A DNA stretch of 64,000 nucleotides, taken from Bacteroidota bacterium. Its GTDB lineage: Bacteria > Bacteroidota > Ignavibacteria > UBA10030 > SZUA-254. Below are positions 3,211 through 58,071 of this stretch, one piece after another. The notes below the pieces were generated by a model, which saw only the letters and a list, made by a program, of their open reading frames with translations, did not search any database and had not been told where the DNA came from. Position 1 is the first letter of the stretch, and every line of letters begins with the position of its first letter. Where the stretch lies: positions 117,462 through 181,461 of the forward strand of contig JBIOHP010000002.1 of assembly GCA_044449065.1 (NCBI GenBank), read 5' to 3'. A program made the position numbers and the translations under genes.

Positions 3211-3878
3211 ACGCCCCTCGTCGAAGGATGCCAGATAAATTTGTGTATTTGAAGTTGAAATCGTGCGTCCAACTTATCCGAGAGAATCCATTCTGCCAAC
3301 CGGATGGGTTCCAATTCGCCGAATACAACCGACATGAGCACAGAACTCTTTTCTAATAGCCGATGTTCAGCAATTTTCTCTTTTGCCCAATCATAATCTT
3401 CGCGGGTTCCGATCACAAATTTTACCTCGTCATCACGGGCAAGATAGCGAACGTTTTCCCACAAATTTTTTTTAACCATTTTACTCGAAGGACATTTGAA
3501 ATCGATTATTTTTTTCACCCTTGGATCGACTTTCTCAATCGATAAACTGCCGCCGGTTTCCAGGAGAACTTCATAACCCTCATCGCAAAGCCGCCTCATC
3601 AACGAATGGACATTCGATTGGAAGAGAGGTTCACCGCCAGTCACCTCCACGAGCCGGCATCCGTATTCCTGAACAACGGATAGAATTTGCGAGATATTCA
3701 ATTCTTCCCCTTCATCAAAGGCATATTGGGTATCGCAGTAACTACAACGGATATTACAATAGGATAAGCGGATGAAGACGCACCTACGACCGGCGAAACT
3801 CGATTCACCCTGTACACTGTGAAAAATCTCATTTATTATTAGAGATTCCCCTGTATTTTTTATATCTTTGGTATCCAT
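3207..3878 (-). CDS. queE: 7-carboxy-7-deazaguanine synthase QueE (radical SAM)
   Basis: CNIRCSYC radical-SAM cysteine motif and QGES motif. Operon partner of queC. Confidence 0.85.
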
Positions 3879-4066
3879 GATTGCTCTAGAAAAATATCAT
3901 AAATAGAGCAGTGAAACGCAAACAATCGATCTGCAAAAGCCAATATTATATACTCCGGTTAATTGGTTTCGATGGCATTTCTATCATCAAGTGAGATCCA
4001 AGGCATCATGAGAATGCTATTTATGCTATTAATAGATACGCCCGCTTTATCTAAATTTTTGCCAAT

Positions 4067-5920
4067 ATGAAACGTTTAATAATATTCAAAGCCCTCATAT
4101 CGCTGGTTTTTACAGTATTGTTTTTTATGTTTTGGCCCACCAATTTGGTATGGGATGACGCCGGAATAATATTGAAGTACATGGACAATTTTAGGAACGG
4201 TTACTTCTATTCTTACAATCCTTCCGATGGTCCGGTATTTGGAATTTCAAGTTTTACCCACGGTCTCTTATCAGGATTTTTTGCCTTCACTCATATTTTT
4301 TCTCCTTTAAATAGTTTATTTGCGAGCAATTTCATCGGCTTGTTTTTCGTCTCTTTCCTCTCGCTCCATTTGATATCCCGGTATGAATATAATTTTTCAG
4401 TAATCTGGTTTGCATGGCTTCTATTAATGTGTTCGTCGCAGGATTTTGTCTGCAATATTAAACAGGGAATGGAGATTCCGCTGTACCTTGCAATACTCCT
4501 GGGATGTTTTCACTTCTATCTGAAAAACGACGTGAGATGGATGTTCGCGTTCTTCTCCCTGGCAATTATTACAAAACTCGACTCTGTGCCAATTATCGGC
4601 ATGCTATTCCTCGGCTTTGTCTATAATAACCGTCAATCGCTGAAACCTTTTACATTTGCCAATAAATTATATCAACAAATTTTATTGTACGGCATCTTGC
4701 CCCTGACTGGATGGATAGTATTCAGTTTTCTGGTTTTTCGGGGACCTCTGCCGCAGGCGGCGCTCGCCAAAATGTATTATCATATGCATTCATCCGGAAG
4801 CTGGTTTCCTTTCCTGCAGCCGCTTATGGAAGGCGTAGTTCATCAAATCATTATTCTGGGAGTCGCAATTGTATTTTTTGGATACGCTCTCTATTGTATT
4901 TACACGAAACGATTCAGCGAGATATCGACAACCCTGATCTTTGGTTTAGCGGCGACGGCGTATTTACTCCTCTATTACTTTTATAACCCGGGAGAAAGAA
5001 TGGGATGGTATTATGCTATCCCGGAATTCCTCATGAGCTTACAAATGATCGTCATAGCGATCAGACTCGCTCACACCTTCATGATTCGCTGGAAACGCTC
5101 TGCGCTCATCATTATATTCATGGCTCTCCTTATCATCAGTTCTGCCGTCGTCAATAAATTTATCCAGAGAACGCTAAATTATTTAACGGTCATAGAATCC
5201 CAACGAATTGCCATCGGCGATTGGATTCATGATCATAGTAACCCCAACGATACGCTTATGGCTGGACATGGACATATCGCACGGAATTCAGGTCTGTATA
5301 CCATTGATTTTACCGGCATCAATTCAACAATTGTTACCGATTATAAACTTGATTTCGGAAAACTTGTCAATAATTTTAAACCCAGATGGATCGTGCAAGA
5401 GGGGTTTCTCGATGCTAAGTTGGAAAGGACGGCTGGATATACACTGAGAAATTCGTTCTATAATACTGCCGTTTTGAGTTATCCGCCGGTAAGAGTATAT
5501 GAGAAATTGTCCGGAACTAATTTCACCGCCGAACATCCCATTACACCGGCGATGGTTACTACCAATGGCAAATATGAGATGCGAGCGAATGGATTATTTA
5601 TTATCGATGGGACTAGAATTTCATTCAAAAATATCGATCCTAACATTCATCTGATAAAATTTGAAGTCGGTTTAATCAGAGGGGATATCAACAACACCAT
5701 TAACGCCGAAATAACCGGCATCGATTCTAAAACATTAAAAAACTCATCATTCGAGCTACCGCGTAAAAATTTAGCCAATCCTGCCGATGGATTTAGTGAC
5801 CGATGGGTAATAGATCTTCAACCGGAATGGACCATTAAATCCGTGACACTTTTTACACAAGAATCAGCGGGAAATCCTTCAGAACATTTTATAATCGTTG
5901 ATCCGATCATTACAGAATAA
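4067..5920 (+). CDS. Polytopic integral membrane protein (about 12 TM) with a C-terminal soluble domain; possible GT-C-type glycosyl/polysaccharide-modifying enzyme
   Basis: 617 aa, highly hydrophobic N-terminal two-thirds. It heads the polysaccharide gene cluster. No specific motif recognised. Confidence 0.4.
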   Translation: MKRLIIFKALISLVFTVLFFMFWPTNLVWDDAGIILKYMDNFRNGYFYSYNPSDGPVFGISSFTHGLLSGFFAFTHIFSPLNSLFASNFIGLFFVSFLSLHLISRYEYNFSVIWFAWLLLMCSSQDFVCNIKQGMEIPLYLAILLGCFHFYLKNDVRWMFAFFSLAIITKLDSVPIIGMLFLGFVYNNRQSLKPFTFANKLYQQILLYGILPLTGWIVFSFLVFRGPLPQAALAKMYYHMHSSGSWFPFLQPLMEGVVHQIIILGVAIVFFGYALYCIYTKRFSEISTTLIFGLAATAYLLLYYFYNPGERMGWYYAIPEFLMSLQMIVIAIRLAHTFMIRWKRSALIIIFMALLIISSAVVNKFIQRTLNYLTVIESQRIAIGDWIHDHSNPNDTLMAGHGHIARNSGLYTIDFTGINSTIVTDYKLDFGKLVNNFKPRWIVQEGFLDAKLERTAGYTLRNSFYNTAVLSYPPVRVYEKLSGTNFTAEHPITPAMVTTNGKYEMRANGLFIIDGTRISFKNIDPNIHLIKFEVGLIRGDINNTINAEITGIDSKTLKNSSFELPRKNLANPADGFSDRWVIDLQPEWTIKSVTLFTQESAGNPSEHFIIVDPIITE

Positions 5921-6023
5921 ATTGATAAAGGACGGTTTTATCGTTACATTTAAAATTGTTAGATTTTGATTTTATCAATATATATATAATGGATAATTCA
6001 GAAACTGAAACAACTATAACGCC

Positions 6024-6815
6024 TTGAACACGAAAACTTCAACGATAAAAAAGAAGCCGACGCCGTTTAATCAATACTACAATATCATCCGTGAATTGGC
6101 GATTGCCGATTTTCGCCTCAAATATCATGATTCAGCGCTGGGATACGTCTGGTCCATGTTGAATCCGCTATTGATGTTCGGGGTATATTATTATGTCTTC
6201 ACCACGATTTTCCACAGCACTATTCCATCCTACCCGATCTTTCTCCTGGCAGGAATTATCAGTTACGCATTTTTCCAGGATTGTACGTTTAGCGGAATGG
6301 TTGCGCTCGGCTCAAAAGCCGGAATTATGAAGAAGATTTATTTCCCAAAAACCATTCTCATTTTTGCCGCTTCAACCACTTCAATACTATCATATGTCAT
6401 CAATTTGTTTGTGCTCTTCGCCATAACATTTATCGGGAGAGGATTTACCCCACTTGTGTTTCTTACACCAATCCCGGTTTTCTGTTTGATTTTATTTTCC
6501 ATTGGTATATCATTCATCATGGCGACGATGTATGCGTATTTCCGGGATATGGGACAGATTTGGAATGTGTTAGTCCTGGTAATCTTCTGGCTTAGTCCTG
6601 TTGTGTACAATGTTGACAATCTTCCCCAATCGATTTCCAAATTGGTCTACTTCAATCCCCTGACGAGGATTTTCGTTCTTCTTCGCCACTACCTGCTCTA
6701 CAATTATTTCGATCTACGATTTTTATTGATGACGATTATTTATTCTGTCCTCACCTATCTGATAGGATACGTTATCTTTCGGAAATATCAGGATAGCCTT
6801 GCGGAGTTATTTTAA
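6024..6815 (+). CDS. wzm: ABC-2 type polysaccharide export permease (Wzm/KpsM/TagG-like)
   Basis: 263 aa, 6 TM, typical ABC-2 permease layout. TTG start. The stop overlaps the start of the downstream ATPase (TAAATG). Confidence 0.75.
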   Translation: MNTKTSTIKKKPTPFNQYYNIIRELAIADFRLKYHDSALGYVWSMLNPLLMFGVYYYVFTTIFHSTIPSYPIFLLAGIISYAFFQDCTFSGMVALGSKAGIMKKIYFPKTILIFAASTTSILSYVINLFVLFAITFIGRGFTPLVFLTPIPVFCLILFSIGISFIMATMYAYFRDMGQIWNVLVLVIFWLSPVVYNVDNLPQSISKLVYFNPLTRIFVLLRHYLLYNYFDLRFLLMTIIYSVLTYLIGYVIFRKYQDSLAELF

Positions 6816-50079: not shown

Positions 50080-51372
50080 ATGAGCGCCGACACAACCTCA
50101 CTGCGAAACGTTCTCGTTATAGCATATTATTTTCCGCCGATGGGTTTGAGCGGAGTCCAGCGAACATTGAAATTTGTGAAATATCTCCCGCAATTCGGCT
50201 GGCAGCCGACAGTGCTTACCGTAACCCCGACGGGATACTTTGCGCAGGATGAAACTCTTCTGGATGAAATCAAAGATTTGAATATCGAGATCATCCGCGC
50301 CGGTTCGCTCGACGCAAATAGGTTCTTTAAGAAACAAAGAATCGTCAAACTGCCGTCCGAACGATGGGGAAAGTTTCTTACGTTTACAAGTGATTTGTTT
50401 TTTATTCCCGATAATAAAATTGGCTGGAAACGGAGAGCCCTTCAGGCGGCGATGGAAACGATGAACAAAACAAAATTCGACGTGATTTTTGCCACCGCGC
50501 CTCCGTTTACCGATTTTCTCATCGGAACGGAATTGCACGATCGGTACAAAATCCCTCTCATTCTCGATTACCGCGATCCGTGGCTCGAATATCCAGTTAA
50601 GTATTATCCCACATTGTATCACCGGTGGAAAACGTACGCCATGGAAAAAATCGCCTTGCAGAAATCGTCAAAAATTATCGTGACCAACCGGCGGGTTAAA
50701 GAATTAATCCTGAAACAGTACGTATTTCTTGATTATGAAGATATCGTAATCCTCCCGCAGGGATACGATCCCGCCGATTTTGATTTCTCATCCTCAAAGA
50801 ATAGTGAAAATCAAAAATTCACAATTACTTATACCGGCGTCTTCAACGGCGATAGAACCCCGAAGTATTTTTTCGAGGCATTGAAAAAAATATTTTCCGA
50901 TTCACCGGATTTGAAAGAAAAAATTGAAGCGCGCTTCGTCGGAAATTTCCAGGATGAGTATATCAGATTAATTCAAGCGATGGAACTCGATCAGAATATC
51001 GTTATGACGGGATATGTTAGCCATGCCGAGAGCATCAAAGAAGTGATGAAATCTGATTGCGTATGGCTGATGTTGATGAACGACCGGCAATCGCCCGGAA
51101 AGTTGTACGAATATATCGCCTCGAAGAAACCGATTCTCGCTTGCGTCCCGGATGGGTTTATTAAACAAACCGTACTCGAAACGGGCGCGGGTGTTGTTGT
51201 CGATCCCACGCACGTCGAAGCAATATCCAATGCGATCCTGCAACTGTATGATCAGTTCAAGAAAAAACAGCTCCCTTCGACCACAGAAGAGATTGTTCAG
51301 AAATATAACCGTGTCGCTCTAACGAACGAGTTATCGAAGATAATGGGATTTCTTATAGATTATCCGTCATGA
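50080..51372 (+). CDS. Glycosyltransferase (GT-B, family-4-like)
   Basis: 430 aa. N-terminus NVLVIAYYFPPMGLSGVQR and C-terminal Rossmann-like half (ILACVPDGFIKQTVLETGAGVVVD). Confidence 0.55.
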   Translation: MSADTTSLRNVLVIAYYFPPMGLSGVQRTLKFVKYLPQFGWQPTVLTVTPTGYFAQDETLLDEIKDLNIEIIRAGSLDANRFFKKQRIVKLPSERWGKFLTFTSDLFFIPDNKIGWKRRALQAAMETMNKTKFDVIFATAPPFTDFLIGTELHDRYKIPLILDYRDPWLEYPVKYYPTLYHRWKTYAMEKIALQKSSKIIVTNRRVKELILKQYVFLDYEDIVILPQGYDPADFDFSSSKNSENQKFTITYTGVFNGDRTPKYFFEALKKIFSDSPDLKEKIEARFVGNFQDEYIRLIQAMELDQNIVMTGYVSHAESIKEVMKSDCVWLMLMNDRQSPGKLYEYIASKKPILACVPDGFIKQTVLETGAGVVVDPTHVEAISNAILQLYDQFKKKQLPSTTEEIVQKYNRVALTNELSKIMGFLIDYPS

Positions 51373-52652
51373 AAATTTTAGTTATCGGCTCCGGAGCCCG
51401 CGAACACGCGCTCCTTTGGAAATTGTCGCAGAATTCAAAACACCCCGAATTGTTCTGCGCGCCGGGAAATGCCGGAACCGCGCAATTAGCAAAAAATATC
51501 CCGGTGAAGACAACCGCGTTACCGGACCTGTTGTCATTCGCGAAAATTGAAAAAATCGATCTCACTGTCGTCGGTCCTGAGCAACCCCTCATGGACGGGA
51601 TTGTGGATCTTTTTGAGGAAAACGGATTAAACATATTCGGTCCCCGGAAAGCTGCCGCGGAGATCGAAGGAAGTAAGGTCTTTGCGAAACATTTCATGCA
51701 AAAGTACAAAATTCCCTCCGCTTCCTTCCGCTCGTTCGACCTAACGGAACAAAATAATGCGATAGATTATATTAATGCACTCTCCCCTCCCATCGTTATT
51801 AAAGCGGACGGATTAGCGGCGGGAAAAGGCGTATCGATTTGTGAAACACGCGGCGAAGCAGTTCAAACAATCGATGCGATGATGGGGAAAAAAATTTTCG
51901 GAGATGCCGGCACGCGGATCGTTATCGAAGAATTTCTCGAAGGATTTGAAACATCGGTTCTCGTACTCACCGATGGCGGGAATTTTGTTACCCTTGTCCC
52001 TTCGCAGGATCACAAACGGATTCTCGATGGAGATAAAGGAAAAAACACCGGCGGAATGGGCGTGTATGCGCCGGTGCCGATGGTTTCGTTTGAAATGCTT
52101 GAGGAAATCAAACGGCACATCATCAAACCGACGCTCGAAGGTATGGCAAAGGAAGGAAGAACGTATAAGGGCTGCCTCTATGCCGGTTTGATGATCACGC
52201 AGCAGGGTCCCAAAGTTATTGAATTCAACTGCCGCTTCGGCGACCCTGAAACGGAAGTTGTCCTGCCCCTCCTTGATGACGACCTCGTCGATCTAATGAT
52301 GGATATATCGGCGGGTACATTATCAAAAACGGAAGCACGGTTGAAACAACTCTCCGCGGTATCCGTGATTATCGCATCGGGGGGTTATCCCGATGCATAT
52401 GAAACCGGAAAGAAAATATTAGGATTGGATACAATTGCTGCAATTGACGATATTATAGTGTTTCACGCCGGCACAAAAACGGAAAACGGAGCAGTACTAA
52501 CCTCCGGCGGAAGAGTCCTCGCTGTTACGGCTCTTGGTCCCAAAGATAATTTTGAAGAAACCATTCGCAAAGCATACAGCGCGGTAAAAAAGATCACCTT
52601 CGATGGCGCGTATTACCGGAGCGACATCGGGAAAAAGGGACTGTTGCGGTAA
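51369..52652 (+). CDS. purD: Phosphoribosylamine--glycine ligase
   Basis: MKILVIGSGAREHAL N-terminus and ATP-grasp motifs. 4-bp overlap with the upstream gene. Confidence 0.9.
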   Translation: MKILVIGSGAREHALLWKLSQNSKHPELFCAPGNAGTAQLAKNIPVKTTALPDLLSFAKIEKIDLTVVGPEQPLMDGIVDLFEENGLNIFGPRKAAAEIEGSKVFAKHFMQKYKIPSASFRSFDLTEQNNAIDYINALSPPIVIKADGLAAGKGVSICETRGEAVQTIDAMMGKKIFGDAGTRIVIEEFLEGFETSVLVLTDGGNFVTLVPSQDHKRILDGDKGKNTGGMGVYAPVPMVSFEMLEEIKRHIIKPTLEGMAKEGRTYKGCLYAGLMITQQGPKVIEFNCRFGDPETEVVLPLLDDDLVDLMMDISAGTLSKTEARLKQLSAVSVIIASGGYPDAYETGKKILGLDTIAAIDDIIVFHAGTKTENGAVLTSGGRVLAVTALGPKDNFEETIRKAYSAVKKITFDGAYYRSDIGKKGLLR

Positions 52653-52680
52653 ACAACTCACAATAAGGATTATTATTTTA

Positions 52681-54024
52681 TTGTTCCAGTATAAACATAT
52701 AGAACAATCGCTCTCAGTTATTCGCGAACAACTGAGTTTATTCGATGTGCAGACTAAAAAAGCACATGTTCCGTCTTATCAACTTGAATTTAAAGATTGG
52801 GATTTTGCTTCAGCGGATACGAAAATTGAAACTCATGGGTTTCATCCCTATCCCGCCATGATGATCCCGCAGATTGCGAGATTATTAATTCAGATGCATG
52901 GTAAAAAGGGACAACCATTACTGGATCCGTTTTGTGGCTCCGGCACAGCCCTTGTCGAAGCACGGATCGCCGGGTTGAATTCCTACGGGATAGATATTAA
53001 TCCCCTCGCACTTCTTTTATCAAAAGTCAAAACAACTCCACTTGATATACAAATATTAAAAAAATATTCCATTCGATTATGCGATGATTACCTAAAGACG
53101 ACCATAAAACTTGCCGATAAAAAAGACTCTGAAATAATCCCGAAGTTTTTCAATATAGATTATTGGTTTCGCCCTAAAATTAGTCGTCAACTCTTCGTGT
53201 TAAAATCAGTCATCGACAAAATTCCTGAAATTGATTATCGCGGGTTCTTTTTAATTGCTTTTTCACAAACAGTCAGAGAATCGTCATATACTCGCAACGG
53301 CGAGTTTAAACTTTTCAGGATGCCCGCGGAACAAATGGAGAAATTCATGCCAAATGTTCCAGAATTATTCTTCAGTATTGTTCAAAAAAACTTGCCCATG
53401 ATGGCAGAGTTTGCACGAGCTGCAAAAAACAACGTTTTCGTAAATATTCTTGATGAAGATTCCAGAAAAACTACTGCGATACCCACAAAAACGGTTGATC
53501 TGATCGTAACCTCTCCTCCCTATGGAGACTCGCGCACAACGGTTGCCTACGGGCAATATTCTCGTCTCTCGCTTCAATGGTTAGGTTTACCATGGGAAAA
53601 AGTAAAAAATATTGATACTATTTCACTTGGAGGGCGCAAATATTCGGAATTTTCCGGTTTTAAAAAGTATCCCCATCTCATGGATATAGTAAAGAAAATT
53701 GAGATTCAGGATTCCAAACGCGTCCAGGATGTTGCGAGTTTCTTTTATGATCTCGAATTATGCTTTAGTGAATTCAAACGAGTGTGCAAGAAAAATGCGA
53801 TTCTATGTTTTGTTGTCGGAAACCGTACAGTGAAAGGGGTGAAAATTCCAACGGATGCTATTATTACGGAATTAGGCAATAATGTGGGGATGAAGCACAT
53901 CAAAACTTATACTCGAAATATTCCAAACAAACGAATGCCTTCAAAAAATAGCCCAACCAATATTGAAGGTCAATTAGGCGAGACCATGACAAAAGAATAT
54001 ATTGTCGTGTTGAAAAATAACTGA
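52681..54024 (+). CDS. SAM-dependent amino-methyltransferase, probably a DNA N6-adenine/N4-cytosine methyltransferase (motif I before motif IV with about 200 aa between: alpha-like order)
   Basis: Motif I LLDPFCGSGTALVEA and motif IV DLIVTSPPYGD. The ORF is open from 52603, inside purD. TTG at 52681 (AAGGA 11 nt upstream) is proposed as the start; the first in-frame ATG is about 85 codons further in. Confidence 0.6.
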   Translation: MFQYKHIEQSLSVIREQLSLFDVQTKKAHVPSYQLEFKDWDFASADTKIETHGFHPYPAMMIPQIARLLIQMHGKKGQPLLDPFCGSGTALVEARIAGLNSYGIDINPLALLLSKVKTTPLDIQILKKYSIRLCDDYLKTTIKLADKKDSEIIPKFFNIDYWFRPKISRQLFVLKSVIDKIPEIDYRGFFLIAFSQTVRESSYTRNGEFKLFRMPAEQMEKFMPNVPELFFSIVQKNLPMMAEFARAAKNNVFVNILDEDSRKTTAIPTKTVDLIVTSPPYGDSRTTVAYGQYSRLSLQWLGLPWEKVKNIDTISLGGRKYSEFSGFKKYPHLMDIVKKIEIQDSKRVQDVASFFYDLELCFSEFKRVCKKNAILCFVVGNRTVKGVKIPTDAIITELGNNVGMKHIKTYTRNIPNKRMPSKNSPTNIEGQLGETMTKEYIVVLKNN

Positions 54025-54034
54025 AGAGGATTCC

Positions 54035-54928
54035 TTGAAGATAATTCCAATACGTCCAGAATTGAAAAACGAGTTACAAGGGAATAAGGGCTTAATTCAA
54101 AAAGTCAAGAAGAAATATCTCCCCACGGGAGAAAAACTTGCAGGGGTAGCATGGAAAAATGTTTCATTTAGACACCAGAAATTAACCCGTGAAAACGTAA
54201 TAAAAAATTTCAATGCGTATTTATCCGAACTTCTTGATTAAGAATATGAATTATATCTCGAATATGAGGAGGATTGCATTTCCAAGGGAGTCATTGAACT
54301 TGCATTCGGACCAGACAATAAGCGGGACTACCCGGCAGTTCATTCTTTAATACAAAAGACGTTAGGCATTTTCGGGGATAAAACTATTTCAAATGACAAG
54401 AAGTTAATTAATTTAATTTCAATTCTCCGTCCATTTTATAAGATAGTTGAACAAAGTTTTGCGCAAGGTCGGATGTCTCGCGCAGGTGGAAGCTCGCAAT
54501 ATCATCTTAAAACTCTTCTTGAACGCGCGGGTTATAGCGGTGAATTTGAAATGGAACAGATCCTTAATGGTACAGTCGATTTTTTGTTTCCGAGTAAAGC
54601 TGCGTGGGATCAGGATAAGAGAAAATGTATCATTGTATCGATGAAACGCACGCTGCGTGAGCGTTATAAACAAATATTCGAGGAATTAAATATTACCGGC
54701 GGCATCCCTGTGTATATTATTATAACAGAAACTTATGAAGAAGCCGAGAAAGATATTACCGAGTCTAAGGTTGACAAATTGAACGAACACAACTTTTATC
54801 TTGTTATCCGAGACGAAATCAAGAATCGGAGGTTCTCCAAAAAGGTAAATGTAATTAGTTTTTCCACGTTTATTCAAGAAGAACTCCCGAATAAACGATA
54901 TGCATGGAAGTCGTTGCTAAAAAAATAG
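54035..54928 (+). pseudogene. Putative restriction-endonuclease partner of the upstream methyltransferase, disrupted by a single in-frame TAA (54239-54241); the ORF track shows it as separate 68-aa and 151-aa ORFs
   Basis: 54035..54241 and 54473..54928 are in the same frame. I translated the 231-bp gap codon by codon and found no further stop, giving a continuous 297-codon frame with one TAA. The ATG at 54035 is 10 nt after the MTase stop. Confidence 0.5.
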
Positions 54929-54957
54929 ACTACATTAATAAGAAAGAGAGTATATAG

Positions 54958-55884
54958 TTGAAAATTCTTATCACCGGCGGAGCAGGGTTTATCGCATCTC
55001 ATGTCGCCGACGCCTATATTGCGGCGGGACATGACGTCGTTATTATCGATAATCTTGTTACCGGGAACAAACAAAATCTTAATCCCAAAGCAAAATTTAT
55101 CGAAATGGATATCCGAAGCGAAGAACTGAAAAAAATATTTTCCTCCGAAAAATTCGACGTTGTTAATCATCACGCTGCGCAAATGGATGTGCGAAAATCC
55201 GTCGAAGACCCTATGTATGACGCCTCGGTGAACATTCTTGGAGTGTTAAATCTTCTGGAAAATTGCCGGTCGCATAAAATAAAGAAATTCATTTTCTCCT
55301 CCACCGGCGGAGCAATTTACGGCGAGCAGGATTATTTCCCCGCCGATGAGGAACATCCAACGCGGCCCCTTTCCCCCTACGGGATCTCAAAGTTAACGAC
55401 AGAAAAGTACCTGTTCTACTACAGCGCTATACACGGCGTGCAGTACGTGATTCTTCGGTATGCAAACGTGTACGGACCCCGGCAAAATCCTCATGGTGAA
55501 GCCGGCGTGGTGGCGATCTTTGCCACCAAAATGTTCGCCGGAACACAACCGGTGATTAACGGCGAAGGCAAACAAACACGCGATTATGTCTATGTCGGCG
55601 ACGTCGTAAGGGCGAATGTAAGCGCGTTGAAATTGAACAAAAACGATTGCATTAATATCGGCACGGGAATCGAAACTGATGTTAATGCGTTGTTCAATAT
55701 TTTGAGTAAATATACCGGAAAAAACGTGAAGGAAGTCCATGGAGCCGCGAAAGAAGGCGAGCAGCTCAGAAGCGTCCTTCTAAATAATAAAGCAAAGCAA
55801 ATCCTCAACTGGTCGCCGGAAGTCTCCCTTGAGGATGGCTTGAGGATGACTGTGGATTATTTCAGAAATCGTAAACAATCGTAA
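54958..55884 (+). CDS. NAD-dependent sugar-nucleotide epimerase/dehydratase (GalE/WbpP-like)
   Basis: TTG start. GGAGFIASH Rossmann motif, catalytic YxxxK (YGISK). Confidence 0.8.
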   Translation: MKILITGGAGFIASHVADAYIAAGHDVVIIDNLVTGNKQNLNPKAKFIEMDIRSEELKKIFSSEKFDVVNHHAAQMDVRKSVEDPMYDASVNILGVLNLLENCRSHKIKKFIFSSTGGAIYGEQDYFPADEEHPTRPLSPYGISKLTTEKYLFYYSAIHGVQYVILRYANVYGPRQNPHGEAGVVAIFATKMFAGTQPVINGEGKQTRDYVYVGDVVRANVSALKLNKNDCINIGTGIETDVNALFNILSKYTGKNVKEVHGAAKEGEQLRSVLLNNKAKQILNWSPEVSLEDGLRMTVDYFRNRKQS

Positions 55885-55887
55885 TCC

Positions 55888-56838
55888 ATGCCTCATAAAC
55901 AAAAACTTATAGAGAAAATTCTCAGCGGCGACCGCGTAAGCATCGCCCGGGGAATTTCGTACATCGAAAATGAATATTCCGAGTCGATTCAATTGCTCCG
56001 GGAACTGTATTCACACACGGGTAAAGCGTACCGTATCGGTATCACGGGACCTCCCGGTGCCGGCAAAAGCACCATCTCGAATAAGCTTGCAAAATTTTAT
56101 CGCGGGCAGAATAAAAAAGTCGGCATCATAGCTGTCGATCCTACCAGCCCCTTTACCGGGGGCGCACTTCTCGGAGACCGCGTGCGGATGACCGACGTCG
56201 AATTGGATCCCGGTGTATTTATCCGGAGTATGGCGTCCCGGGGAAGTCTGGGCGGGTTGAGTAAAAAGGCAAAAGAAGCCGCCGATGTTCTGGATGCGTC
56301 AGGATCAGATATCGTACTTATGGAAACGGTGGGAGTCGGACAATCCGAGCTGGATATTGCGCACGCAGCGGACACCACCATTGTCGTGCTTGTTCCCGAA
56401 TCCGGAGATTCAATCCAGGCGATGAAAGCCGGCTTGATGGAAATTGCGGATTTCTTCATCATTAATAAAGCCGATCGTGCCGGCGCGGATCAGGCGGTGA
56501 TGTCGATTAAAACTGTTTTAAATCTCAAACCGCAGGATTCCGGCTGGTCACCCGACGTCTTGAAAACTGTTGCAAATAGCGAAAAAGGAATCAAAGAAGT
56601 TGCCGACATGATCGACGCCCATCATAAGCATCTTGAAACGACGAACAATCTTCAGTTGCGGCGTAGGGAACGGATTGTTGAACGCATTCACGATCTCATC
56701 AGTGAACGGCTGCATGTTGAATTCTGGACAGAAGAGCGTAAGTCCCTTCTTGCGTCCAAGTTAGATTCAATCGTCGATCAGAAAGCGACCCCATATGATA
56801 TTGTGGAAGAATTACTAAAAAGTTTGAAACATCGATAA
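55888..56838 (+). CDS. meaB: MeaB/ArgK-family GTPase (methylmalonyl-CoA-mutase-associated chaperone)
   Basis: Walker A ITGPPGAGKST, IAVDPTSPFTGGALLGDRVRM, NKAD motif. Confidence 0.8.
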   Translation: MPHKQKLIEKILSGDRVSIARGISYIENEYSESIQLLRELYSHTGKAYRIGITGPPGAGKSTISNKLAKFYRGQNKKVGIIAVDPTSPFTGGALLGDRVRMTDVELDPGVFIRSMASRGSLGGLSKKAKEAADVLDASGSDIVLMETVGVGQSELDIAHAADTTIVVLVPESGDSIQAMKAGLMEIADFFIINKADRAGADQAVMSIKTVLNLKPQDSGWSPDVLKTVANSEKGIKEVADMIDAHHKHLETTNNLQLRRRERIVERIHDLISERLHVEFWTEERKSLLASKLDSIVDQKATPYDIVEELLKSLKHR

Positions 56839-56892
56839 CATTGCTATTCGTCGAAAATCCTCATAAATTAAAAAAACGAAAAGGAAATTGAA

Positions 56893-58071
56893 ATGGCTGA
56901 ACAAGAAACATTAGAACAGGTTACACCGGAATTCCAGATAACCGATACCATGAAGATGGTGCGCGATGTTGCTCGCGACTTCGCTGAAAAAGAAATTAAA
57001 CCCGTCGTTATGAAAAACGATGAATCGATGAACTTTCCCATGGATATCATCAAAAAACTTGGCGGATTGGGATTTATGGGAGTTATCTTCCCCGCAGAGT
57101 ATGGCGGCGCGGGCTTCGGCTATCTCGAATATATCACCATTATTGAGGAAATATCAAAGATCGATCCGTCAATCGGTTTGAGCATTGCCGCGCATAATAG
57201 TTTGTGCAGCAACCACATCTATACATTCGGCTCTGAGGAGCAGAAACGAAAATATTTGACCGATCTTGCTTCCGGTAAAAAGATCGGCGCATGGGCATTG
57301 ACGGAGCCAACTTCGGGAAGCGATGCGGGCGCGATGCTAACAACAGCAAAGCGCGAAAGCGATTATTATGTCCTGAACGGCAGCAAAAATTTCATCACTC
57401 ACGGATCAGTAGGTGATGTGACCGTAGTGATGGCAATTACCGATAAATCTCTGGGGAAAAAAGGCGCATCCGCGTTCATCGTAGATAATAAAACTCCCGG
57501 CTTCATCGTCAGCAAGAAGGAAAATAAACTTGGGATGAGGTGCTGCGATACATCCGCGCTATCATTCGACAACATGAAAGTTCCGAAAGAAAATTTGCTC
57601 GGAGAGGAAGGCGGCGGATTTGCGCAGGCGCTAACCGTATTAGACGGCGGACGCATCAGCATAGCCGCCCTTGCGCTTGGCATTGCGCAGGGTTCGTTCG
57701 AATTAAGCGTGAAGTATGCCAAAGAGCGGCAGCAATTCGGCAAGCCGATCGGATATTTCCAGGCGATCCAGTGGAAACTTTCAGAAATGGCAACCCAGAT
57801 CGAGGCAGCGAGACTGCTCACGTATCGTGCAGGATTTCTAAAAAACGAAGGCAGCGAGGTCACCCTTGAATCGGCGATGGCAAAATATATGGCGGGTGAA
57901 ACCGCGGTATATTGCGCCGGTGAAGCCGTTCAAATTCATGGCGGGTACGGTTTTATCAAAGACTTTCCGGTCGAAAAATTTTACAGGGATTGCAAATTGG
58001 TGACGATTGGCGAAGGAACCACCGAAATACAAAAGCTCGTCATCGCGCGTAATCTTCTCGATATTCATTAA
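56893..58071 (+). CDS. Acyl-CoA dehydrogenase, short/branched-chain type (isovaleryl-CoA-dehydrogenase-like)
   Basis: Acyl-CoA dehydrogenase motifs (GAWALTEPTSGSDAG, QIHGGYGF, ...EGT.EIQ). Adjacent to the methylcrotonyl-CoA carboxylase subunit. Confidence 0.75.
   Translation: MAEQETLEQVTPEFQITDTMKMVRDVARDFAEKEIKPVVMKNDESMNFPMDIIKKLGGLGFMGVIFPAEYGGAGFGYLEYITIIEEISKIDPSIGLSIAAHNSLCSNHIYTFGSEEQKRKYLTDLASGKKIGAWALTEPTSGSDAGAMLTTAKRESDYYVLNGSKNFITHGSVGDVTVVMAITDKSLGKKGASAFIVDNKTPGFIVSKKENKLGMRCCDTSALSFDNMKVPKENLLGEEGGGFAQALTVLDGGRISIAALALGIAQGSFELSVKYAKERQQFGKPIGYFQAIQWKLSEMATQIEAARLLTYRAGFLKNEGSEVTLESAMAKYMAGETAVYCAGEAVQIHGGYGFIKDFPVEKFYRDCKLVTIGEGTTEIQKLVIARNLLDIH

Follow-up and report, generated by a model that had tools for sequence, protein, structure and literature searches.

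The window analysed here, a 64,000-nucleotide (nt) stretch of contig JBIOHP010000002.1 (GenBank assembly GCA_044449065.1, Bacteroidota bacterium, class Ignavibacteria; positions 117,462 to 181,461 of the forward strand), contains two adjacent genes, an intact DNA amino-methyltransferase gene and, directly downstream on the same strand, a putative restriction endonuclease gene interrupted by one in-frame TAA. An earlier note, made from the letters of this stretch and a list of its open reading frames (ORFs), had described the pair as a restriction-modification remnant in which a nonsense-broken nuclease gene follows an intact methyltransferase gene. The features of the pair are listed below in window positions, with endonuclease residues numbered from the TTG at 54035 and the TAA counted as codon 69.

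52681..54024, plus strand: DNA amino-methyltransferase gene, intact; 447 amino acids (aa) from TTG 52681, stop TGA at 54022-54024
52924..52947, plus strand: methyltransferase motif I, DPFCGSGT, the S-adenosylmethionine (AdoMet)-binding loop; D-P-F-x-G-S-G-T columns invariant in the homologue alignment
53512..53523, plus strand: methyltransferase motif IV, SPPY, the catalytic loop; TSPPYGDS block invariant in the homologue alignment
54035..54928, plus strand: restriction endonuclease pseudogene of 297 codons, assigned to the EcoRII-C / Ecl18kI / PspGI family by Pfam, homologues, PDB and fold match
54035..54238, plus strand: N-terminal 68-codon fragment of the endonuclease, hypothetical protein MFI5251144.1 in the public annotation; aligns to residues 4-68 of intact relatives
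54239..54241, plus strand: in-frame TAA, codon 69 of the endonuclease and its sole lesion, from translation; a sense codon in relatives
54242..54928, plus strand: C-terminal 228 codons of the endonuclease, with predicted pocket residues Y71 and Y74, recognition residues Q144 and R208-E209-R210, and catalytic residues D182, K204 and E217 (alignments; residue roles from PMC2577326 and PMC2577355)
54473..54475, plus strand: ATG codon 147, the first in-frame start after the TAA; ORF 54473-54928, 151 aa
54497-54499, plus strand: endonuclease codon 155, Gln aligned opposite the first metal-binding Glu of the characterised enzymes
54578..54580, plus strand: codon for predicted catalytic Asp182, aligned with PspGI D138 and Ecl18kI D160 (PMC2577326)
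54644..54664, plus strand: codons K204 to R208-E209-R210, the predicted catalytic Lys and the R-(D/E)-R motif that reads CC:GG pairs (alignments; PMC2577326)

The endonuclease frame begins 10 nt after the methyltransferase stop and runs for 68 codons to the TAA at 54239-54241, then for 228 sense codons to a TAG at 54926-54928; the remaining two frames across 54035-54928 are broken by many stops. Retranslation reproduced the frame, its single TAA, the two ORF fragments of 68 aa and 151 aa, and the coordinates reported for them in the earlier note. From base composition, the chance of a 228-codon open stretch at approximately 37% guanine plus cytosine (GC) was estimated at approximately 1e-7. 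Between 54242 and 54473 the ORF list holds no in-frame ATG, GTG or TTG, which leaves 77 codons without a start. A search of a large protein database with the joined 297-aa translation returned 118 homologues, nearly all of 283-304 aa, at 95-99% coverage and 42-68% identity, and when the fetched loci were searched with tblastn, head (68 aa) and tail (228 aa) aligned collinearly and in one frame to single ORFs. As homologues of 283-304 aa span the joined query, the two open pieces are one gene elsewhere, and the proposal that both fragments came from a single protein of approximately 297 aa is thereby borne out. At the TAA position relatives have a sense codon (ACG, ACA, AAA, TTA, GTG or ATA), located between an invariant Asp and an invariant Glu-Tyr, and the closest relative carrying the gene (locus L004) has AAA, one substitution away from TAA. 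Neither a stop shared with relatives nor matches of the two fragments to unrelated proteins were found; every full-length relative has a single ORF.

The joined translation matched Pfam EcoRII-C (PF09019) with E = 2.4e-14 and 54.2 bits (cut-off 25) over residues 139-280, a domain carried by all listed homologues but one, and also matched two PADLOC type II endonuclease models. Against PDB sequences, the single translation hit Ecl18kI (7e-9) and PspGI (1.7e-3), and a profile of 54 homologues hit Ecl18kI (3e-16), EcoRII (3e-11) and PspGI (2e-8). A structure model was made with AlphaFold from the 54-sequence alignment for the intact relative P0003, not for the broken copy of the window. This model (mean predicted local distance difference test score 87.9, predicted template modelling score 0.83) superposed on Ecl18kI (2fqz) over its whole length, with a template modelling (TM) score of 0.69-0.71 over approximately 286 columns and a Foldseek E of 5e-12; the next fold matches were PspGI and the EcoRII catalytic domain (3bm3, 3hqg), and nothing else was significant in this search. 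By these alignments the broken gene is taken to be the cognate type II restriction endonuclease of the EcoRII-C / Ecl18kI / PspGI "CCGG family", in agreement with the earlier suggestion that the partner ORF was most plausibly the cognate nuclease.

As the superposition on Ecl18kI is full-length, the N-terminal 68 residues are part of one fold and not a separate protein. The public annotation does list the 68-aa piece as a protein in its own right (MFI5251144.1), and one could suppose that it, for example as a regulator, and the nuclease are separate functional genes instead of one broken gene. We consider this hardly credible, since every full-length relative reads through the same interval without interruption, with a sense codon in place of the TAA, the 68-aa piece had no family match of its own in profile searches and corresponds to the N-terminal helices in the Ecl18kI fold, and nothing downstream of the TAA could start translation for 77 codons.

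The position of the TAA was then related to residues with assigned roles. In PspGI, the active site consists of E105, D138, K160 and E173, the recognition residues are Q94, R164, E165 and R166, and the pocket for the flipped base includes E60, F64, Y67, R96 and R99 (PMC2577326); E60 and F64 are equivalent to R57 and W61 of Ecl18kI and to R222 and Y226 of EcoRII (PMC2577355). The window residues D182, K204 and E217 align to PspGI D138, K160 and E173 and are invariant or nearly so in the subfamily formed by the homologues, and Q144 and R208-E209-R210, invariant in the subfamily, align to Q94 and R164-E165-R166. Y71 and Y74 are likewise invariant, and they are likely the pocket aromatic residues for the flipped base because the subfamily motif D-x-E-Y-x-x-Y-L-x-x-E ('xEYELYLEYEE') aligns with 'VEYDIFLLVEE' of EcoRII, which contains Y226. 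The TAA lies two codons ahead of this predicted pocket aromatic residue and upstream of all recognition and catalytic residues. As it occupies codon 69, the 68-aa peptide stops just short of the pocket helix and has no recognition or catalytic residue. The uninterrupted frame of a functional EcoRII-C family member is thus absent, and we regard the gene, on its sequence, as an EcoRII-C family member by descent that is now a pseudogene.

A nuclease could still be supposed if translation re-initiated at ATG 54473 and the resulting 151-aa product kept cleavage or DNA binding. Such a product would hold D182, K204, R208-E209-R210 and E217, and similar 166-aa C-terminal products are predicted by gene callers in other genomes (P0048, P0056). 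However, it would comprise approximately half of a single fold, without the N-terminal helices, the pocket helix with Y71 and Y74, or the invariant S141, Q144 and R146, the last two of which are equivalent to PspGI Q94 and R96, which act in recognition and in the pocket (PMC2577326). As for P0056, it derives from the 3' end of a pseudogene carrying both a stop and a frameshift, and two of its invariant positions are substituted (F183C, P186L). We thus judge a functional truncated nuclease very unlikely. Because no in-frame start follows the TAA for 77 codons, we propose that no active nuclease would be made in the host.

The upstream gene was compared with methyltransferases acting on DNA and on RNA. 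It matched PADLOC MTase_II (PDLC03322) at 2e-139 over residues 59-472 of the 473-aa form and profile positions 18-442 of 446, and Pfam N6_N4_Mtase (PF01555) at 61.4 bits (cut-off 26.7). Motif I is followed after approximately 190 residues by motif IV, and every column invariant in 13 homologues, including DPFCGSGT and TSPPYGDS, is kept, so the two motifs and the intact state noted earlier both stand. The protein is 100% identical to NCBI MFI5251143.1 (473 aa), for which the public start is ATG 52603, overlapping the end of purD by 50 nt. TTG 52681 is the better start because homologue N-termini ('MFQYKQIE', 'MIQYKSIE') match the window there ('LFQYKHIE'); this is the start that the earlier note had used. 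An RNA methyltransferase of the Trm11, RlmL or Trm14 type, the case that would have overturned the assignment, was considered and rejected on the scores of TIGR01177 (49 against a cut-off of 316), Trm14 (33 against 280) and RlmK/L (23 against 466). PF01170 (UPF0020) does pass its Pfam cut-off with 48 bits, its best stretch covering only residues 83-130 and profile positions 8-56 of 197, and the PDB matches to Trm11 and Trm14 comprise approximately 50 residues around motif I only; the RNA-type similarity is thus confined to the motif I region, as against the full-length PADLOC match.

SPPY is characteristic of N4-cytosine enzymes, and M.PspGI, which is highly similar to M.MvaI, is thought to make N4-methylcytosine (PMC2532716). 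Three homologues of the window methyltransferase are labelled 'cytosine-N4-specific' by their source. Because of the SPPY motif, these source names and the C/G-only core expected for the partner nuclease, the enzyme is probably of the N4-cytosine type, like M.PspGI and M.MvaI.

Intact homologue pairs, which the earlier note had suggested looking for in relatives, were found: in 15 full-length loci from Bacteroidota, Poribacteria and Armatimonadota the methyltransferase gene lies directly upstream of the endonuclease gene on the same strand. The two genes overlap by 8 nt in L001-L003 and are 10 nt apart in the window. Adjacency in 15 loci from three phyla makes this a bona fide two-gene system. 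The same pair also occurs in unrelated contexts and in other phyla (L007, from an uncultured Chitinophagales; L008; L010-L017; L022), which implies that the cassette also moves horizontally as a unit. Archaeal matches were to Thermofilaceae for the endonuclease and to Thermococcus, Woesearchaeota and Nanoarchaeota for the methyltransferase, the Thermococcus homologues being approximately 52% identical.

The genes on either side of the pair are as follows.

51369..52652, plus strand: purD, left flank; GARS domains in the syntenic gene; adjoins galE directly in the nearest relatives
54958..55884, plus strand: NAD-dependent sugar epimerase gene (galE-like), right flank, from the ORF list and syntenic genes

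The GC content of the pair is 37-38%, 8-11 points lower than that of its flanks (46-49% for purD, the epimerase gene and meaB). Among the relatives found, the closest five encode epimerases with 72-80% identity to that of the window (in one, purD is 85% identical) and share the gene string pepP-glycosyltransferase-purD-epimerase-meaB. In all five, purD and the epimerase gene are direct neighbours, 18-227 bp apart. The earlier observation that the pair interrupts a housekeeping context is borne out by these empty junctions and by the lower GC content of the pair. In more distant relatives (L001-L003, L004/L005 and L006; flanking proteins 58-70% identical), an intact pair is located at exactly the same junction, and L009 shares the right flank. 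The syntenic loci L001-L006 had suggested an old, vertically inherited unit instead of an insertion, a reading that was revised because the junction is empty in the nearest relatives.

Whether the junction was filled once or repeatedly was assessed from several comparisons. Host trees from the flanking genes were star-like, with occupied and empty lineages interspersed. Pairwise identities of the endonucleases showed no significant correlation with host identities (Spearman -0.16) and so give no signal of long residence; those of the methyltransferases track host identities (six pairs, by reading), and the GC content of the pair follows that of the host with a constant deficit. In L024 (Ga0265316_10164834), the closest relative, the empty purD-epimerase spacer occupies 582-721 (140 bp), and its alignment to the window picks up again approximately 16 nt ahead of the stop codon of the endonuclease ('GTTGCTAAGTATTTAG' against 'GTTGCTAAAAAAATAG'), a point that may be a deletion scar. 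The spacer also contains two short hairpin-forming inverted repeats, AGAACGAAAT-TCA-TTTCGTTCT and GAACGAGAT-GA-ATCTCGTTC, which are absent from the window. From the methyltransferase identities, the GC tracking and the L024 spacer we lean toward one old insertion with repeated loss; repeated acquisition at the same junction, in place of one ancient gain with later losses, is possible. A search for flanking direct or inverted repeats at the borders of the pair gave short, chance-level matches only, an Rfam scan of 51000-57000 returned nothing, including tRNA-like elements, and a promoter and terminator scan, which targets sigma-70 promoters and may not suit the host phylum, gave counts at or below the shuffled expectation.

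Different samples yielded the nearly identical contigs L001, L002 and L003. In L003 (JGI 3300003890, Ga0063162_1000272), the epimerase gene beside the intact pair is itself broken at 5894-6704, where tblastn gave two segments and gene callers give a 114-aa gene and an opposite-strand ORF.

Outside the TAA, the endonuclease of the window deviates from its homologues at 3 of the 73 columns conserved in at least 90% of them (Q174E, L228I and V258I). All three deviations are conservative, and intact homologues have a median of 1, several having 2-4. Three origins fit the absence of decay beyond the stop: a recent mutation, a variant within the population, or a base error. It may accordingly be asked whether the TAA is an assembly base error, or a minority allele that entered the consensus from a mixed population, with the restriction-modification system intact and active. 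The sequence comes from a metagenome-assembled genome, the gene is otherwise conserved like intact homologues, and the TAA is one substitution from the AAA of the closest relative with the gene, all of which would fit an error or allele of this kind. On the other side, substitution errors are in general uncommon in consensus assemblies, the nearest relatives have lost the whole pair, so that loss is under way in the lineage, and the same decay is seen independently in other loci, together with several fragmentary copies of the endonuclease family. We therefore consider an intact, active system unlikely, though it deserves more weight than the other alternatives.

The independent case is found in L025 and L026 (marine TARA and Logan scaffolds, Poribacteria-like), in each of which an intact 452-aa methyltransferase gene is followed by a broken endonuclease gene at 3651-4501, where a Trp codon at about codon 36 has become a stop and the reading frame shifts at about codon 108. 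This endonuclease is 94% identical to the intact P0027; its 166-aa tail, called as protein P0056, is the one with F183C and P186L mentioned above. Here too the nuclease decayed and the methylase was kept. Later-stage remnants are present in four further genomes. In three Poribacteria genomes (L018, 6001-6384; L019, 6001-6390; L021, 73-457), the endonuclease gene is reduced to its 3' third to half, and no methyltransferase gene was detected in the fetched flanking DNA. In a Fimbriimonadales genome (L020, 5824-6540), methyltransferase residues 7-93 overlap the start of endonuclease residues 105-291, an arrangement that suggests an internal deletion across the gene boundary.

Taken together, the locus is best explained as a PspGI/Ecl18kI-like two-gene type II unit in which the nuclease was lost by one nonsense mutation and the methyltransferase remains intact, a reading to which we assign a probability of roughly 0.75. 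The ancestral endonuclease would have been a homodimeric PD-(D/E)XK enzyme in which the R-E-R motif reads CC:GG and an aromatic pocket takes up the flipped central base of a 5-bp CCNGG or CCWGG site. A single-base change would have made codon 69 a TAA, ending translation two residues before the pocket aromatic, and the intact methyltransferase presumably still methylates the genome as a solitary enzyme. Because the nearest relatives have neither gene at the junction, the window may show an early step of a loss that would already be completed in them. A cell survives the loss of such a system only if the nuclease disappears before the methylase; in the opposite order its chromosome would be left open to cleavage. 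Solitary methylases are common after such a loss, and many modification enzymes are retained in lineages that lack a restriction partner (PMC12707154). The description of the locus in the earlier note is thus upheld as a whole.

Several points weigh against this explanation. The absence of further decay is predicted equally by a very recent mutation and by an artefact, and the consensus of a metagenome-assembled genome could carry the TAA by error or from a minority allele. No closer relative with the pair was found for comparison, the best endonuclease identity being 68%, and a 24-base pattern spanning the stop had no match in a same-species search of other metagenomes. As for the recognition sequence, CCWGG is mildly depleted in the window (69 observed against 88 expected, 0.79) and the observed/expected ratios of CCNGG and CCGG are 0.86 and 1.13, so that the specificity is not backed by word statistics. 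Finally, the first metal-binding Glu of the characterised enzymes (E105 in PspGI, E125 in Ecl18kI, a Glu in EcoRII) is replaced by Gln155 in the window, as in 90% or more of the subfamily. Gln155 stands opposite this Glu in each of three independent alignments, and it is a subfamily trait, not a lesion of the window copy; with Gln at the first metal-binding position, nuclease activity is an assumption even for the intact relatives. Gln155 may represent a variant active site in the subfamily.

Among characterised systems, the PspGI system of Pyrococcus (R.PspGI and M.PspGI, CCWGG) resembles the window in combining a single-domain endonuclease of EcoRII-C fold with an SPPY amino-methyltransferase, M.PspGI being compared here by its published description. 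PspGI D138, K160, R164-E165-R166, E173 and Q94 all have identical counterparts in the window endonuclease. However, endonuclease identity is low, the phmmer match (the E of 1.7e-3 given above) covers the catalytic half only, the window subfamily has Gln for E105 and Tyr where the PspGI pocket aromatic is Phe, the host of the window is a Bacteroidota-group bacterium, and the window copy has a nonsense codon.

Ecl18kI and SsoII (CCNGG) are the best structural and sequence matches (Foldseek 5e-12, TM approximately 0.7, profile 3e-16). They share with the window family a PD-(D/E)XK core, the R-E-R motif, an N-terminal helical region and, as predicted for the window family, base flipping into a pocket (PMC2577355). 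Sequence identity to Ecl18kI is only approximately 20%, its pocket residue Trp61 is a Tyr in the window family, as in EcoRII, and E125 is the position changed to Gln. The partners of Ecl18kI and SsoII are C5-cytosine methyltransferases, unlike the SPPY amino-methyltransferase of the window.

EcoRII (CCWGG) contains, in its C-terminal catalytic domain, the namesake of the Pfam family, with a pocket-helix motif around Y226 that resembles that of the window family (profile E = 3e-11). In EcoRII an N-terminal effector domain is present in addition, and a second site is required (PMC2770665). The window protein, at approximately 297 aa, has no effector domain, and its recognition motif is R-E-R where EcoRII has K-D-R ('CKDRW'). 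Orphan methyltransferases left after nuclease decay provide the remaining comparison, as they also include an intact methyltransferase gene beside a point-mutated nuclease gene; in the window, by contrast, the nuclease gene can still be recognised in full and has one lesion, which places it at the earliest stage, and a regulatory role of the methyltransferase would be only hypothetical. The locus is an ordinary pseudogenised member of a well-known kind of system.

In the annotation, a single endonuclease pseudogene should replace the 68-aa 'hypothetical protein' and the fragment downstream of it, and the methyltransferase start should probably move to TTG 52681. A solitary methyltransferase, not an active restriction barrier, is predicted for the organism. 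Decay of the nuclease with the methylase kept is a common and expected route for such systems and will not surprise a specialist; the window adds a clean early example of the expected loss order, nuclease before methylase, with intact and empty comparators at the same site and a parallel case in another phylum. More tentatively, the purD-epimerase junction could be a long-lived slot in an Ignavibacteria/Kryptonia-like branch of the Bacteroidota group, with the pair intact in deep lineages, nonsense-mutated here and absent in the nearest, and the subfamily of more than 100 members could also use a variant active site or an undescribed CCGG-family specificity; we regard this wider proposal as doubtful but worth stating. 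If true, the slot would offer a natural series for the loss of a chromosomally fixed restriction-modification unit. The Glu-to-Gln change across the endonuclease subfamily poses a small, testable biochemical question. Gln155 persists although the endonuclease genes stay paired with methyltransferases across three phyla.

A separate observation concerns word counts across the window. Under a maximal-order Markov model, GGCC occurs 21 times in 1-64000 against approximately 146 expected (ratio 0.14), a depletion far exceeding that of any CCGG-type word, and CTAG is low as well (0.38). The GGCC depletion suggests that the lineage was long exposed to a restriction activity that is specific for GGCC (HaeIII-type) and has no connection with the pair.

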